Below, piece by piece: positions 1 to 20,629 of a DNA stretch of 36,395 nt. The notes under the pieces are model-generated. The model was not told the origin of the DNA. It ran no database searches and saw only the letters and a program-made list of their open reading frames with translations. This DNA comes from Thermodesulfobacteriota bacterium (GTDB lineage: Bacteria; DASVDK01). Position 1 is the first letter of the stretch. Every line of letters begins with the position of its first letter. A program made the position numbers and the translations under genes. The DNA is taken from NCBI GenBank assembly GCA_036381125.1, contig DASVDK010000237.1, positions 1 to 36,395 on the forward strand, in the 5' to 3' direction.

Positions 1-472
1 CGAGCCGGATGCGGCCGTCGGGGTCGATCACGAACGCCCCGGGCAGGAGGAGGCTGTCACCGGCGGGTAGCCCTGCGATGTGCCCGCGAAGCGTGGCCGC
101 GAGGGCTCGCCGCAGGACCGCCAGGCCGAAGAGCTGGGCGAACCGGCCGTGCCTGAGCCCGTATGCCGCGTAGGCCCGGCCGGTCGGGTCGGCGAAGAGC
201 GGAAAGCCCGGCCGAAAGGCGGACTCGGCCCGCGCCGTCCGGGCGGCGTCGGCGGGACCGACGGCCGCCAGTCGGACGCGCCGCCGCTCGAACTCGCCGT
301 GCCGCTCCCGCAGCTCGCCGAGCTGCTCCTTGCAGAACGTTCAGCCGTAGTGCCTGAGGAAGACGAGCGCGGCGAAGTGGTCCTGCCACAGGCTGGCCAG
401 GTGCACCTCGCCTCCCGCCGTGTCGAGCACCACCGCGTCCGGCGCACGGTCGCGCACCGACAGCTCGCTCAT
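1..472 (-). CDS. Peroxiredoxin-like (AhpC/TSA, PRXL2/SelL-like) thioredoxin-fold protein, probable selenoprotein (UGA=Sec at codon 44); 3' end outside window
   Basis: GGGAGG RBS, then ATG at 472. Reads MSELSVRDRAPDAVVLDTAGGEVHLASLWQDHFAALVFLRHYG-TGA(343-341)-TFCKEQLGELRERH...FPLFADPTGRAYAAYGL...LPGAFVIDPDGRIRL, open to the window edge. FLRHxG[C/U]xxC, 'ADP...Y..YGL' and 'G.FVID.DG.I' are family motifs. Not in the ORF track. Confidence 0.9.
310..326 (-). promoter_or_regulatory. Putative bacterial SECIS hairpin for the Prx-like gene
   Basis: mRNA GCAGCUC-GGC-GAGCUGC: perfect 7-bp stem starting 15 nt after the UGA, with G in the apical loop. Confidence 0.7.
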
Positions 473-494
473 CGATCGACCCTCCCTGCCCGCC

Positions 495-14217: not shown

Positions 14218-14814
14218 CTATCCCGCCCGCCGTCCCTCGGACGGCGCGGGCTCGCGGATGAAGGACGCTTTCATCGCCCAGAGGGTTCCCGGGTAGCGGT
14301 CGAGCAGCTCGTTCCACCCCTCCTTGAGCGCCTCCCCGCGCCCCGTCGCCCGGTAGCGGGCCACCGCGAGCCAGTAGAGCGCCTCCGGGGTCTGCGGCGA
14401 GACCGCCGCCTCGCGGGCGGCGCGCAGGCAGGCCGCCTCGGCGTCGGCGTAGCGCCGCTCGGCGAACGCCACCATCGCTTCGCCCAGCGCCAGCTCGACG
14501 AGGAACGCCTCCGGCTCGAGGTAGCCGGTCGAGGCGCGCACCAGCCGATCGTCGGGGGTCCGGAACTGGAAGGTCGGGGTCCAGACGGCGCCGAGCGCGC
14601 CGGCGACCTCCGACTGCTGCGTGAAGCTGACCTTCACCGGGACCATGCTCGCGAGCGCCTCGCGCACGCGGGGGTGTGGATACGTCACGGCATCCATTCG
14701 GGCGCAGCCGCCTCAGGTGGGGGCAAAGACGTCCACGAAGAGCAGCCGCCGCTCGCGGCGCGCTCGTTCGCGCGCCTCCTCGAGCGAGGCCGCCCAGGCG
14801 ATCGCATCGGCCAT
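14218..14814 (-). CDS. Thioredoxin-fold plus TPR-like protein, probable selenoprotein (UGA=Sec at codon 34, UGGC motif), 198 aa
   Basis: GAGGAGG RBS, ATG 14814: MADAIAWAASLEEARERARRERRLLFVDVFAPT-TGA(14715-14713)-GGCARMDAVTYPHPRV..., in frame with the tracked 14218..14697 ORF (cis-Pro WTPT; TPR-like PEALYWLAVARY). Confidence 0.9.
14677..14696 (-). promoter_or_regulatory. Putative bacterial SECIS hairpin for the Trx-TPR gene
   Basis: mRNA UGGAUGC-CGUGAC-GUAUCCA: 7-bp stem starting 17 nt after the UGA, built from codons unusual for this DNA (GAT, TAT, CCA). Confidence 0.7.
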
Positions 14815-15585: not shown

Positions 15586-16851
15586 ATGATGTCTCCGATC
15601 GCGCTCTCATCTCTGACGGCCCTCTCCGATGCCGACCTTCTCGCCCGGATCGCCCGGCTCGCGGCGCAGGAGCGCGAGGCAACCGTCGCGCTGATTGCGC
15701 ACCTCGTCGAACTCGACGCCCGGCGCCTCTACCTGGCCGAAGGCTACCCGTCGCTCTTCGCCTACTGCACGCAGGCCCTCCACCTCTCCGAGCATGCCGC
15801 GTACGGGCGGATCGAGGCGGCGCGCGCGGCGCGGCGCTTTCCCGTTATCCTCGAGCGCCTTGCCGGCGGGTCAATCACGCTCACGACGGTGACGCTCCTC
15901 GCGCCGCACCTCACGGTGGAGAATCATCGGGACCTGCTCGAGCAGGCCCGCCACAAGAGCCGGCGGGAGGTCGAGGCGCTGGTGGCGGCGCTCCGTCCCC
16001 AGCCGCCCGTGCCCACCTCGGTGCGCCGGCTGCCGGCACCACGGCCTGCGCCGGCCGTGCCCCTGTCACCGGCGGAGGCGGCGCTTCCCGACGCGTCTGG
16101 ACCGACCCCGCTCCTCCCCGCGACGGCGCCGCCCGCGATCGAAGCGGCGCCAGTGAGCCCCCCTCCCCCGATTCCAGCCTCCCAGGCGGCCGCGTCACCG
16201 CCGGCCCCCGAAGCGTCCGTAGCCGTGTCGGCGCTGACGCCGACGTCACCGGCGTCGACTGGCACTCCGACACCACCGACGCGATCGCCGGTCGTGGCCC
16301 CTCTGGCGCCCGACCGCTACAAGGTCCAGTTCACCGCGAGCGCCGAGACCTACGCCAGGCTACGGCAGGCGCAGGATCTCCTGCGCCACCAGATCCCCGA
16401 CGGCGACATTGCCCAGGTCCTCGACCGGGCCCTCACGGTCCTTGTCGAGACGCTCCTCAAGCAGAAGGTCGCCGCGACCGATCGACCGCGGGCGGGGACG
16501 CCCCCGAGGCCGGGCTCGCGCCACGTGCCGGCGGCGGTGAGGCGGGCGGTCTGGGCGCGCGACGGGGGACGGTGCGCCTTCGTGAGCCGGACTGGGCGCC
16601 GGTGTGCGGAGCGGGGCTTTCTCGAGTTCCACCACGTGCGGCCGTACGCAGAAGGCGGCCCGGCGACGGTCGAGAACATCGAGTTGCGCTGTCGGGCGCA
16701 CAACGGGTACGAAGCGGAGCGGGTGTTCGGCCCCCGGGGCGCGTCGCAGGTGCGGGAGCCGGCGGCCGTCTACGTCGCGGCTCGCCGGGTCGCCGCCTGG
16801 CGGCGAACTCGGTTCGAACCGAGTTGGGCCTCGGCCGGCCAGCCGCCGTAG
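15586..16851 (+). CDS. HNH endonuclease with N-terminal helical (DUF222-like) domain and Pro/Ala-rich linker
   Basis: C-terminal RHVPAAVRRAVWARDGGRCAF...C...LEFHHVRP..GG..TVENIELRCRAHN; N-terminal LSDADLL...LIAHLVELDARRLYL..GYPSLFAYC. Confidence 0.85.
   Translation: MMSPIALSSLTALSDADLLARIARLAAQEREATVALIAHLVELDARRLYLAEGYPSLFAYCTQALHLSEHAAYGRIEAARAARRFPVILERLAGGSITLTTVTLLAPHLTVENHRDLLEQARHKSRREVEALVAALRPQPPVPTSVRRLPAPRPAPAVPLSPAEAALPDASGPTPLLPATAPPAIEAAPVSPPPPIPASQAAASPPAPEASVAVSALTPTSPASTGTPTPPTRSPVVAPLAPDRYKVQFTASAETYARLRQAQDLLRHQIPDGDIAQVLDRALTVLVETLLKQKVAATDRPRAGTPPRPGSRHVPAAVRRAVWARDGGRCAFVSRTGRRCAERGFLEFHHVRPYAEGGPATVENIELRCRAHNGYEAERVFGPRGASQVREPAAVYVAARRVAAWRRTRFEPSWASAGQPP
16806..16825. 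repeat. HNH-associated perfect palindrome in the 3' end of the HNH ORF
   Basis: AACTCGGTTCGAACCGAGTT is its own reverse complement; followed by GGG. Confidence 0.88.
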
Positions 16852-17048
16852 AGCGCGAGGCCGGCTGGCTGAGAGGAGGTCCCTCGCGGCCCGGCAGTTC
16901 CTAACCGGCCCTCACTCAGAGCAGCCCGTTGTCGGCCAACACGTCCCAAGAGGACCGGTCGGGCAGCTTCATCGTCGGCGAGCGAGATCTCGAGCTTTCA
17001 ACTGGAAGATGCGGAATCGCGCGGGGAAGTAGTCCGTGCGGGACCGAA

Positions 17049-17077
17049 TTGACGGCGCGCGTCCGGGGCGCTACCGT
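17049..17077 (+). promoter_or_regulatory. Sigma70-type promoter of csoR-copA-copZ
   Basis: TTGACG, 17 nt, TACCGT. Confidence 0.65.
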
Positions 17078-17088
17078 CTCGCCTGCTT

Positions 17089-17109
17089 CCCCTCCCCCCT
17101 GGGGAGGGG
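17089..17109. promoter_or_regulatory. Putative CsoR operator
   Basis: CCCCTCCCC-CCT-GGGGAGGGG inverted repeat between the -10 box and the csoR RBS; CsoR operators are C-tract/G-tract pseudo-palindromes. Confidence 0.6.
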
Positions 17110-17124
17110 CGTTCGGAGGTTCGC

Positions 17125-17406
17125 GTGAAGGACGACGTTCGGCAGGATGTCGGCCGGCGGCTCAAGAGCGTGGCGGGACACGTCCACGGGGTCCTCAAGA
17201 TGGTCGAGGAGGACAAGTACTGCATCGATGTGATCCGCCAGATCGAGGCGGTCGAGCAGGCGCTCCACAAGGTGAAGCGGCAGCTCCTGGCCGGCCACCT
17301 CGACAGCTGCGTGACGACCGCCATCCGCAGCGAGAACGCCCGCGACCGCGAGCGGGTGCTCAAGGAGCTGCTCGAGGTCTACGACACGGAGCGACGCCTG
17401 AAGTGA
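17125..17406 (+). CDS. csoR: CsoR-family copper-sensing repressor
   Basis: [25 protein letters not shown]...HLDSCV (Cys/His/Cys Cu ligands); GGAGG RBS. Confidence 0.92.
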
Positions 17407-19775
17407 GCGTCCCGCGGGAGGTCGAGCTCGGCGTCACGGGGATGACCTGCGCCTCCTGCGTGCGCCGGATCGAGAAGGCCCTCTCGAAGGTGCCGGGGGT
17501 CGTCGAGGCGAGCGTCAACCTGGCCACGGAGCAGGCCCGCGTGGTCTACGACCCCGAGGCGGTCGACGTCGAGGCGCTCGAGCGCACCGTCGAGGCCGCC
17601 GGCTACGGGGTGCGCCGCGCGCCGGCCGGGGCCGCGGCCGGCGAGCCGGCCGACGCGTCGGCGGCGCGGGCGGCGGAAGCCGAGCGGGAGCTGGCCGACC
17701 TGCGGCGCCGGTGGGTCGCGAGCCTTGCCATCGGCGCCGCGATGATGGCGCTCATGTACCTGCCCGTACGCCCCGACACGGCCGTCGTCGCGCCGCTGCT
17801 GCTGATCGCGGCCACGGTGGTGCAGTTCTGGGCGGGCGGGCGCTTCTACCGGGCGGCGTGGGCGGCCGCGAGGCACGGCGCGACGAACATGAACACGCTC
17901 GTCGCGGTCGGCACCAGCGTCGCCTACGGCTACAGCGCCTTCGTGACCCTCTGGCCGCAGCTCGCCGAGCGGTGGGGCTTCCCCGTCCACCTCTACTACG
18001 AGACGTCCGTCGTCATCATCGCGCTCGTCCTCATGGGCCGGTGGCTCGAGGCGCGTGCCAGGACCCGCACGGGCGCCGCCATCGAGGCCCTCGTCCGGCT
18101 CCAGGCGAGGACCGCCCGCGTGATCCGTCACGGCGTCGAGCGCGACGTGCCGGTCGAGTCGGTGCGGCCGGGCGACCTCGTGCGCGTGCGGCCGGGCGAG
18201 ACGGTGCCGGTCGACGGCGTCGTTCGCGAGGGGCGCTCCTCGCTCGACGAGAGCATGCTCACCGGCGAGAGCCTCCCGGTCGAGAAGGGCCCCGGCGACA
18301 CGGTCATCGGCGCAACGCTCAACCGCACCGGCAGCTTCGTCTTCGAGGCGACGCGCGTCGGGCGCGACACCACGCTCGCCCAGATCGTCCGCCTGGTCGA
18401 GGAGGCGCAGGGCGGCAAGGCGCCGATGCAGCGGCTCGCCGACAGGATCTCCGGCTACTTCGTGCCGATCGTCCTCGTCCTCGCCGCCGTCACGTTCGCC
18501 GGCTGGCTCCTCCTCGGCCCGGAGCCGGCCCTGATCCCGGCCCTCACGGCGGCCATCGCGGTGCTCATCATCGCCTGTCCCTGCGCCCTCGGCCTCGCCA
18601 CGCCGACGGCCGTCATGGTCGGCACCGGCAAGGCGGCCGAGCTCGGCATCCTGATCCGCGGCGGCGAGGCGCTCGAGGCGGCGCGGCGCGTCGACACCGT
18701 CGTCCTCGACAAGACCGGCACGCTCACCCGCGGCAGGCCGGCGGTGACCCGGATCGTGACCGACGGCCTCCCGGAGGCGGCCCTGCTGCGCCTCGCGGCC
18801 GCGGTCGAGGTCGGCTCGGAGCACCCGCTCGGCGAGGCGGTCGTCACCCACGCGGCCGGGCTCGGCCTCGACCTGCCCCGCGCCGAGGCGTTCGAGTCGG
18901 TCCCCGGCAAGGGGGTGCGGGCCGTCGTGGAGGGACGTGCCGTCCTCCTCGGCAACCGCGCCCTCATGTCCGATGCGGGCATCGCCCTCGACGGCCTCGA
19001 CCGCCGCGCCGAGGCGCTCGCCCGCGGCGGCGAGACGCCGATGTACGTGGCGGTGGACGGCCGGGGGGTCGGCCTCGTCGGCGTCGCCGACACGCTCGGG
19101 CCGGGTTCGCGAGAGGCGGTGGCCGAGCTACGGGCCCTCGGCCTCGCGGTCGTCATGCTCACGGGCGACGCGCGCGCCACGGCCGAGGCGATCGCGGCCG
19201 AGGCGGGCATCGACGAGGTGCTGGCCGAGGTGCTGCCGCACGAGAAGGCCGAGGCGGTGAAGGCGCTCCAGGCGCGGGGCCGCGTGGTGGCGATGGTCGG
19301 CGACGGCGTCAACGACGCGCCCGCCCTCGCCCAGGCCGACCTCGGCGTCGCGATCGGCACCGGGACGGACGTGGCGCTCGCCGCGTCGGACGTGACGCTC
19401 GTCGGGGGGGACCTGCGCAACCTCGTCACGGCGATCGCGCTCTCCCGCAAGACCGTCGGCGTCATCGCGCAGGGGCTCTTCTGGGCGTTCGCCTACAACG
19501 CGATCCTCATCCCGGTCGCGATGGGGGCGCTCTACCCGGCCTTCGGCGTCCTGCTCGACCCGATGCTCGCCGCGGCGGCCATGGCGATGAGCAGCGTGAG
19601 CGTGGTCACCAACGCCCTGCGCCTGCGCGGCTTCCGGCGACCGGAGAGCGCGGAGGCGATCCTCGACCCGCCGCTCCGCGCGCGGGTGGCCGACTACGCG
19701 TACCTCGCCGGCATCGCGGCGGCCGCCCTGCTGGCCGGGGCCGTGGCGCTCGCGCTCGCGGCCGGCGGACACTGA
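17403..19775 (+). CDS. copA: Cu(I)-translocating P1B-type ATPase
   Basis: GTGA overlap with cso[46 protein letters not shown]. Confidence 0.95.
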
Positions 19776-20014: not shown

Positions 20015-20095
20015 ACGGAGGTGCCGCCCTCGTCTATGCTCTAGCCGGCGTCCCGGGGGCCGCCCGGGGCGCTGCCGACACCGATGGAGGTTCGA

Positions 20096-20629
20096 GTGCG
20101 CAGGTTGCCGTCTCTGGCCGCCGCCGTGGCGGCGGCGCTCCTCACGGGCGTCGCGCCCACCGTGGCGGACGAGCCCGTCCGCGTCGAGGGGCTGGCCGAC
20201 TGGCTGGCCGGGGCCCCGGGCCCCGACCACGCGGCCCGCGCCTACCCACAGTACGCGCAGCAGAAGCCGAGCACCCCCATCCGGCTCATGGGCGTGGCGA
20301 CGCTCATGGGGCGCCTGCGGCTCGGCGACAGGCCCTTCATCGTCGACGTGCGGACCTATCCGGAGTTCCTGGAGGCCCACCTGCCGGATGCGGTGAACAT
20401 CCCGCTCGCCGAGGTCGAGAAGCGGATCGGCGAGTTCCCCAGGCAGGGGACCGTCGTCCTCTACAGAGCGTGCCCCCACCACCTGGCCAGTTTGGCCAGC
20501 GAGAAGCTGTACAAGGCGGGGTACCGCAACATGTACGTCCTCGACGAGGGGATCCCGGGCTGGGCGCGGATGGGCTACCCCATCGAGCAGGGGCCGCCGA
20601 AGGCGCCGAGGCGCACCTCTCTCCGGTAG
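20096..20629 (+). CDS. Exported rhodanese-like protein; catalytic position encoded by AGA (Arg) instead of Cys/Sec
   Basis: GGAGG then GTG 20096; signal peptide; IVDVR..EF..AHLPDAVNIP, VVLY-R-ACP, VLDEGIPGW..GYP. Confidence 0.85.
   Translation: MRRLPSLAAAVAAALLTGVAPTVADEPVRVEGLADWLAGAPGPDHAARAYPQYAQQKPSTPIRLMGVATLMGRLRLGDRPFIVDVRTYPEFLEAHLPDAVNIPLAEVEKRIGEFPRQGTVVLYRACPHHLASLASEKLYKAGYRNMYVLDEGIPGWARMGYPIEQGPPKAPRRTSLR
20483..20499 (+). promoter_or_regulatory. SECIS-like hairpin downstream of the AGA codon in the rhodanese gene
   Basis: CUGGCCA-GUU-UGGCCAG: perfect 7-bp stem starting 16 nt after AGA (20465-20467), G-first loop, rare codons AGT and TTG. Confidence 0.55.

Follow-up and report, generated by a model that had tools for sequence, protein, structure and literature searches.

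Positions 1 to 36,395 of contig DASVDK010000237.1 (assembly GCA_036381125.1), from a Thermodesulfobacteriota bacterium, form the window analysed here, that is, the whole stretch of 36,395 nucleotides (nt). Between a convergent ABC exporter and an unassigned 421-residue open reading frame (ORF), the window carries a candidate selenoprotein gene, in which an in-frame TGA interrupts a sequence resembling a thioredoxin (Trx) joined to a tetratricopeptide repeat (TPR)-like tail.

Reading frame and protein at 14218..14814

All elements of the gene lie on the minus strand, and their positions are those of the whole window. The features assigned to the gene are as follows:

14828-14822, minus strand: Shine-Dalgarno-like GAGGAGG, read from the sequence, with a 7-nt spacer before the ATG
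14218..14814, minus strand: full coding sequence of 198 codons plus TAG (14220-14218), starting at ATG 14814-14812, to which the N-termini of homologs align
14715-14713, minus strand: in-frame TGA, the predicted selenocysteine (Sec, U) codon 34 and first residue of U-G-G-C, with C37 at 14706-14704, from the alignment of TGA and Cys in homologs
14697-14695, minus strand: ATG of Met40, the false start of gene callers, in frame and overlapping the 5' arm of the hairpin
14696-14677, minus strand: hairpin resembling a Sec insertion sequence (SECIS), UGGAUGC-CGUGAC-GUAUCCA, the second (type B) of two types described below, with 5' arm 14696-14690, loop 14689-14684 and 3' arm 14683-14677
14515..14799, minus strand: thioredoxin-fold domain, DsbD-gamma/Thioredoxin_7-like, residues ~6-100, from Pfam, AlphaFold2, Foldseek and PDB profile searches
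14583-14575, minus strand: cis-Pro loop W78-T79-P80, invariant in a 57-sequence alignment
14254..14514, minus strand: C-terminal five-helix TPR-like domain, YbgF/CpoB-like, residues 101-187, from AlphaFold2, PDB profile and Pfam searches

Reading in frame, ATG 14814-14812 is the earliest start codon following an in-frame stop; 33 sense codons (MADAIAWAASLEEARERARRERRLLFVDVFAPT) precede the TGA, and GGC GGC TGC follow it. The ORF reported by gene callers begins at ATG 14697, encodes 159 residues and contains no CxxC motif. The preliminary description of this DNA, made from its letters, had listed the ribosome-binding site, the ATG, the TGA followed by GGC and the missing CxxC of the tracked ORF, and was accurate in every detail. 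Two contigs from two other studies cross the TGA with 0 differences, one from a DNA run (X6, covering 14598-14748) and one from an RNA-library run (X5, covering 14514-14762), which excludes an assembly artefact at this codon. The RNA library may contain DNA and the contigs show neither strand nor ends, and they are used here only as evidence that the sequence is real.

We then evaluated the full-length translation by domain and structure analyses. Pfam matches to Thioredoxin_7 (PF13899, 34.2 bits) and Thioredoxin_2 (PF13098, 30.9 bits) exceeded the cut-off of 27 only when the segment upstream of the TGA was included; TPR_16 and TPR_6 matched the C-terminal domain weakly, and no NCBIfam model reached its curated cut-off for this protein. 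AlphaFold2, run on the 57-sequence alignment, returned a Trx fold with a helical tail at high confidence (predicted local distance difference test score 95.9, predicted template modelling score 0.90), in which the upstream segment supplies beta1 and the active-site helix (residues 35-44, beginning right after U34, at the motif), and the tail comprises helices 101-118, 122-135, 142-157, 160-173 and 178-187. The invariant columns of the same alignment (U/C34, C37 and W78-T79-P80) coincide with the redox motif and the cis-proline loop. Foldseek matched the N-terminal domain to DsbD-gamma (1uc7, E 1.4e-6) and to thioredoxins, and sequence-profile searches of the PDB assigned residues 5-114 to DsbD-gamma-type domains (2kuc, 1.1e-17; DsbD, 6e-15) and residues 113-184 to YbgF (2xev, 9.5e-12) and CpoB (6g5s, 2.2e-9). 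These results bear out the Trx fold fused to TPR-like helices that had been proposed from the letters. No hydrophobic signal-like stretch was seen at the N-terminus of the translation, and the protein is therefore probably cytoplasmic, as judged from sequence.

The database records of the family are dominated by shortened proteins. All 8 close database relatives have 155-162 residues, relatives of ~150-160 residues start at MDAVTYP or MGAVTYP, and 96 of the 109 collection hits of the family fall under 170 residues. Searching 1.84 billion representatives (clustered at 50% identity) with a profile gave 132 matches at E <= 1e-30; the best 150 representatives include 57 truncated calls starting just after the Sec position, 51 single-unit CxxC proteins of 175-230 residues with Cys at the aligned positions, and 27 longer multidomain CxxC proteins. 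The entries are named 'thioredoxin-related protein', 'TolA-binding protein', 'tetratricopeptide repeat protein' or 'hypothetical protein', and never selenoprotein. Gene callers thus usually truncate the family at the Sec codon. Three full-length entries (P0170, P0171 and P0173) have W in place of Sec (AAPA-W-SGC and similar), from which we conclude that these calls were presumably made with a code in which TGA is Trp; such entries presumably represent a second kind of misannotation of the family.

If the callers were right and the TGA were a true stop, the gene would be the 159-residue ORF from ATG 14697, encoding a TPR protein that retains part of a Trx domain, and the 33 upstream codons would be a leader peptide or non-coding. 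The uniform shortness of the close relatives and the 57 truncated representatives accord with this, as does the fact that TGA is the commonest stop of the genome. The upstream segment, however, is conserved as protein across phyla (W7, D28, P32, U/C34, G36 and C37), and it is this segment that completes the fold and brings the Trx domains above their Pfam cut-offs. Moreover, the Met40 start is absent from most homologs, which have Leu there instead, and the Cys homologs read straight through the position; the preliminary description had named homologs beginning at the downstream Met as the outcome that would contradict it, and the homologs extend upstream. We therefore regard termination at the TGA as very improbable, and treat codon 34 below as a predicted Sec codon.

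TGA codon and hairpins across the family

The ortholog in a sister genome of the same genus (92% identity) also has TGA at codon 34, and this genome itself contains three genes of the family, the other two being the following paralogs:

Contig C149, 4965-5513, minus strand: paralog at ~40% identity, with U-V-G-C at the TGA column and a type A hairpin
Contig C366, 9332-9898, plus strand: paralog at ~40% identity, with U-S-G-C at the TGA column and a type A hairpin

Residues flanking the TGA on both sides are invariant among the window gene, its ortholog and the two paralogs. Scanning one genome per species gave 189 confirmed relatives, and the best 80 of these genome loci carry TGA at the aligned codon in 77 cases, Cys in 2 and CGA in 1; the sampling was biased against TGA, a Cys codon at this column being compulsory in one of the two search patterns. 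These loci come from Acidobacteriota, Gemmatimonadota, Chloroflexota, Bacillota, Verrucomicrobia, Planctomycetes, Eisenbacteria, Myxococcales and others. A scan of metagenomes found at least 499 relatives, and a motif scan of the best 80 called 76 (75 TGA and 1 TGC, with 4 giving no call); these loci are not independent counts, because they were picked by similarity to Sec-form queries and are mutually related. Cys occupies the Sec column in loci L112, L128 and L188. The tabulation of Cys against TGA at residue 34 that the preliminary description had recommended, read together with the 51 single-unit CxxC representatives, thus yields a position alternating between TGA and Cys. The family seems to reach far beyond the few deltaproteobacterial members known from the literature searched, and Sec forms dominate its close relatives. 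The data suggest that it is not a rarity of deltaproteobacteria but one of the more common selenoproteins in soil phyla, for example Acidobacteriota and Gemmatimonadota. The single CGA (Arg) locus, L116 from a Vicinamibacteria metagenome-assembled genome, keeps an intact type A hairpin; it could reflect an error in sequencing, a gene inactivated recently, or a site that is edited or variant.

The hairpin of the window gene has 7 base pairs including one G.U, a loop of 6 nt whose second and third bases are G and U, and its first base at nt 17 after the TGA, as the preliminary description had reported without coordinates. The bacterial SECIS model given in a 2026 review (PMC13188914) specifies a stem of 4-16 base pairs, a loop of 3-9 nt with G among its first two bases, a UGA-to-loop distance of 16-37 nt, and a minimum free energy of -7.5 kcal/mol or lower. 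The 7-bp stem, CGUGAC loop, 23-nt spacing and -7.6 kcal/mol of the window hairpin agree with the model on all four counts. Codons ending in A or T number only 15 of 199 in the gene, and 4 of them (CGA39, GAT41, TAT45 and CCA46) lie within codons 39-46, the hairpin region. An Rfam search of the region gave no match, which is uninformative, as we know of no general bacterial SECIS model in Rfam.

Comparison of homologs revealed two hairpin types, which we number from the U of UGA. Type A (CUCGGC-UGGAU-GCCGAG, nt 14-30) occurs in most genes, including both paralogs; type B (nt 20/21-38/39, core nt 21-38, loop CGUGAC) occurs in the window gene, its ortholog and ~20 others. The two are mutually exclusive, lie 6-7 nt apart and have separate sets of frozen codons; in at least one gene (L061) both can form.

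Codon freezing, which sets in precisely at the synonymous sites within the hairpin, is the clearest evidence for a SECIS. Among 112 distinct genes of type A, Arg is always CGG (112/112) and Leu always CTG (112/112), and Ala is GCT in 108/111 and, at a second site, GCC in 111/112, with Glu as GAG in 109/112; Val just beyond the stem varies freely (GTG 56, GTC 33, GTA 11, GTT 10), and control Ala, Leu and Arg codons elsewhere in these genes are mixed. Type B was analysed in 21 distinct sequences chosen by the protein motif [AT]V[TS]Y alone, in which GTG encodes Val in 19, ACG encodes Thr in 18 of 20 and TAT encodes Tyr in 16, whereas a control Tyr is TAC in 18 of 21. The constraint at the RNA level that the preliminary description had suspected from the A/T-ending codons is thus seen in the homologs, both as codon freezing and as covariation.

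Covariation was analysed for each type. For type A (80 sequences), 91.4% of cells are paired against 84.7% in shuffles, and 0 of 500 shuffles reach the observed value; compensatory cells number 15 where 2.6 are expected, and slid controls pair at 31-48%. For type B, the 6-bp core pairs in 19 of the 21 distinct genes, both exceptions having a type A hairpin instead, and the observed pairing was reached by 2 of 500 shuffles; pair 23-36 changes from A-U to G-C in 3 sequences, through Asp GAU to Gly GGU together with a synonymous change of Tyr UAU to UAC. Type B showed no covariation on the mixed 80-sequence alignment, a result superseded by the motif-defined set. The metagenome locus L188, the only Cys form (TGC) with the type B protein motif, carries synonymous changes at two frozen codons (GTG to GTC and ACG to ACC) that break the closing pair; this single case is consistent with relaxed RNA constraint once Sec has been replaced.

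Since the window gene uses type B and its two paralogs type A, both types are in use within this one genome, and one and the same SelB would need to recognise both loops. That the SECIS has moved within one selenoprotein family, between two alternative hairpin positions, is a plausible reading that we advance tentatively, at a little short of even confidence. If both types are functional, the family would offer a natural record of a coding-region SECIS relocating without loss of Sec, and a ready test set for SelB specificity outside E. coli.

Probable selenocysteine decoding and competing explanations

We then investigated the Sec machinery of the genome, whose absence would have spoken against the proposal in the preliminary description. 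Genes for selA (577 bits), selB (339 bits) and selD (351 bits) are present, all above curated cut-offs. The selD gene (contig C156, 487-1425) itself has one in-frame TGA within its TIGR00476 match and presumably encodes a Sec-containing selenophosphate synthetase.

Taken together, the conserved TGA, its alternation with Cys, the frozen hairpin codons and the Sec genes make it very likely that the window gene (14814-14218) encodes a genuine 198-residue selenoprotein that decodes Sec.

Several points weigh against this conclusion or limit it. Sec incorporation into the protein is predicted from sequence. The tRNA-Sec gene was not found in the 382-contig assembly by Rfam, by ARAGORN run genome-wide or by a custom structural scan (0 hits). 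The window hairpin taken alone folds at shuffle level (z -0.63; 49 of 200 shuffles fold as well) in DNA that is here 75% G+C, and its energy of -7.6 kcal/mol is barely within the -7.5 threshold, so that its significance rests on the comparison of homologs. Covariation in type B comes from one pair in 3 distinct sequences, and because the homologs are related, the shuffle tests overstate significance. The RNA-library contig may be contaminating DNA and would at most show transcription. Membership of a named family, discussed below, was judged by eye from a printed sequence. Finally, no conserved neighbour points to a pathway, and the biochemical role and the docking by the TPR tail are inferences.

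As for the missing tRNA-Sec, the sister genome has one at 71.7 bits (cut-off 47) with anticodon tca, and the flank of the sister selC aligns at 90% to contig C236 of this assembly, up to base 15785 of 15794. Because the match runs up to the contig end, selC here most likely falls in an assembly gap, which the sequence comparison places beside a dispersed repeat. A partly palindromic repeat of ~55 nt, dispersed on many contigs of this genome, occurs in the window at 16786-16840; in the sister genome this repeat adjoins selC, which may explain why selC is unassembled here. Candidates for tRNA-Sec in the assembly were rejected: the best Rfam candidate (46.4 bits) is tRNA-Ser, and two ARAGORN 'tRNA-???' calls are not tRNAs by Rfam.

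With tRNA-Sec missing from the assembly, the UGA might instead be read through as an amino acid such as Trp, Cys or Gly, either because a near-cognate tRNA suppresses it or because the code differs, and the hairpin would then serve only to stimulate read-through; the W at this position in P0170, P0171 and P0173 could be cited in its support. Against this, TGA ends 935 of the 1636 long coding-like ORFs of the genome and is thus not a general sense codon. The position, moreover, is that of the nucleophilic Cys of CxxC, and its exchange with Cys in homologs is a signature of Sec, while the presence of selA, selB and a TGA-containing selD, together with a hairpin that fits the SelB-type SECIS model, also argues for Sec insertion. 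We consider non-Sec read-through highly unlikely. A pseudogene or a sequencing or assembly error, in which a Cys codon (TGC or TGT) was mutated or misread as TGA, would require only a single-base change in a fragmented genome of 382 contigs, but is hardly credible and effectively refuted by the presence of TGA at this codon in the sister genome, both paralogs and 152 of the 156 loci that gave a call, by the identical sequence in contigs from two other studies, and by downstream codon constraint specific to Sec forms, the sole type B Cys form (L188) having lost two frozen codons.

Predicted function and comparison with known systems

For the selenoprotein, the following mechanism can be proposed. 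Translation would start at ATG 14814, and on reaching UGA-34 would meet the hairpin at 14696-14677 acting as a bacterial SECIS; this would recruit SelB with Sec-tRNA(Sec), Sec would be inserted, and translation would continue to the TAG at 14220-14218. The redox site of the Trx fold would consist of U34-G-G-C37, where helix 1 begins, and the W78-T79-P80 cis-proline loop. The protein may then act as a selenol/thiol oxidoreductase, in which Sec34 attacks a client disulfide or oxidised thiol and Cys37 resolves the selenenylsulfide; this chemistry is modelled on the thioredoxin paradigm. The TPR tail could provide a docking surface for clients or partners, by analogy with the Trx-TPR chaperedoxin CnoX/YbbN.

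Genomic context adds no partner to this scheme. Among 73 loci no gene neighbourhood is conserved, the downstream gene being convergent in 50, and the 38 close same-strand neighbours share no family common across phyla, showing only lineage-local repeats (NAD_binding_4 four times, DUF3866 twice, amino-acid permease twice).

Elsewhere in the window, an AhpC/TSA-type, peroxiredoxin (Prx)-like gene at 2-481 (minus strand) has an in-frame TGA at 343-341 in the motif RHYG-U-TFC; its read-through product matches PF00578 over the whole domain (7.7e-18), and the gene runs off the window start. It is probably the 'first' hidden selenoprotein alluded to in the preliminary description, and its features agree with the 'Prx-like thiol:disulfide oxidoreductase' UxxC family already described. 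Two genes shortly past the candidate selenoprotein gene encode an HMA-domain P-type ATPase for heavy metals (16929-19775, plus strand) and a rhodanese-domain protein (20084-20629, plus strand). For both domain types the table of the review (PMC13188914) includes Sec-containing forms; in these two genes no in-frame TGA with coding-like flanks was seen.

We compared the window protein with described selenoproteins. The review lists 119 prokaryotic selenoprotein families, among them a 'thiol:disulfide interchange protein' family (PF13098, UxxC; representative WP_011366075.1) 'predicted with high confidence' and credited to its reference 12 (PMC13188914). Three members, from Syntrophus aciditrophicus and two Geobacter species, appear in a 2006 study (PMC1794560), and the deep-Sep supplement prints WP_011366075.1 and two more members (PMC12013277). 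The main text of the review mentions none of PF13899, PF03190, PF13432, tetratricopeptide, TolA or YbgF; the main text of the BSepDB paper has no match to terms for this family, and deep-Sep mentions the family in its supplement only, not in its main text. No mention of the TPR tail of the family was found in the literature searched.

As printed, WP_011366075.1 has ~190 residues with U at about residue 33 in U-I-G-C, compared with U34 in U-G-G-C of the window protein, and shares the blocks DF..P.U.GC..MDAV.YP, W-T-P-T, PEA.Y..GVA.Y (PEA.Y..GVARY in its own sequence) and YP.S.W (YPDSPW in its own). By eye from this printed sequence, it agrees with the 57-sequence alignment at all 5 invariant columns and at 6 of the 7 nearly invariant ones, and by inspection the two further printed members are alike in length, motif and conserved blocks. 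PF13098, matched by the window protein, is also the domain of the named family. On this by-eye comparison the window gene would be a new, misannotated member of an already predicted selenoprotein family: nothing essential differs, and it would represent a divergent member from another, poorly sampled lineage. The known family was described, in the literature searched, from few, mostly deltaproteobacterial genomes, whereas the relatives collected here come mainly from Acidobacteriota, Gemmatimonadota, Chloroflexota, Bacillota and others. Accordingly, of what the preliminary description had suggested, a little-characterised family listed in databases as truncated proteins holds, and a newly hidden family does not, the selenoprotein family having been predicted since 2006.

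The chief value of these results lies in annotation, and no major concept is changed. The window gene and both paralogs warrant annotation as full-length selenoproteins; no NCBIfam model recognises the window protein at its cut-off, so a dedicated model would correct many records.

Among known structures, the DsbD gamma domain (1uc7, 2fwe) is among the best matches for residues ~5-109 (Foldseek root-mean-square deviation 2.8 over 113 columns), and like the window protein it combines a CxxC-type motif with a cis-Pro loop. Unlike DsbD, the window protein lacks membrane and alpha domains as well as an evident signal sequence, and it has a TPR tail and a predicted Sec; the NCBIfam DsbD model (NF001419) scores 23.6 bits against a cut-off of 330, over the gamma-domain region only, which places the protein outside DsbD. 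For the same reason, the absence of membrane and alpha domains and the presence of Sec and a TPR tail instead, the name 'thiol:disulfide interchange' is a functional misnomer.

The tail, over residues ~113-184, matches the TPR domains of YbgF/CpoB (2xev, 6g5s), which accounts for the naming of truncated relatives as 'TolA-binding protein'. CpoB is a partner of Tol-Pal in the periplasm and has a coiled-coil N-domain, whereas the TPR of the window protein is fused to a Trx domain and carries no export signal.

CnoX/YbbN (E. coli 3qou, Salmonella 3qdn) provides the only solved structures that match both domains, over 189-190 columns (E 2.5e-6), and in the same order, an N-terminal Trx followed by TPR helices. 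The root-mean-square deviation is 11.6 A, the domains being oriented differently, and YbbN, at ~285 residues, has a longer TPR part; YbbN is not among the best 60 of 93 PDB sequence-profile hits, and E. coli CnoX presumably lacks a CxxC motif. The likeness is best taken as an architectural analogy and not as membership. The literature name of the family nonetheless hides a Trx-TPR architecture reminiscent of chaperedoxins.

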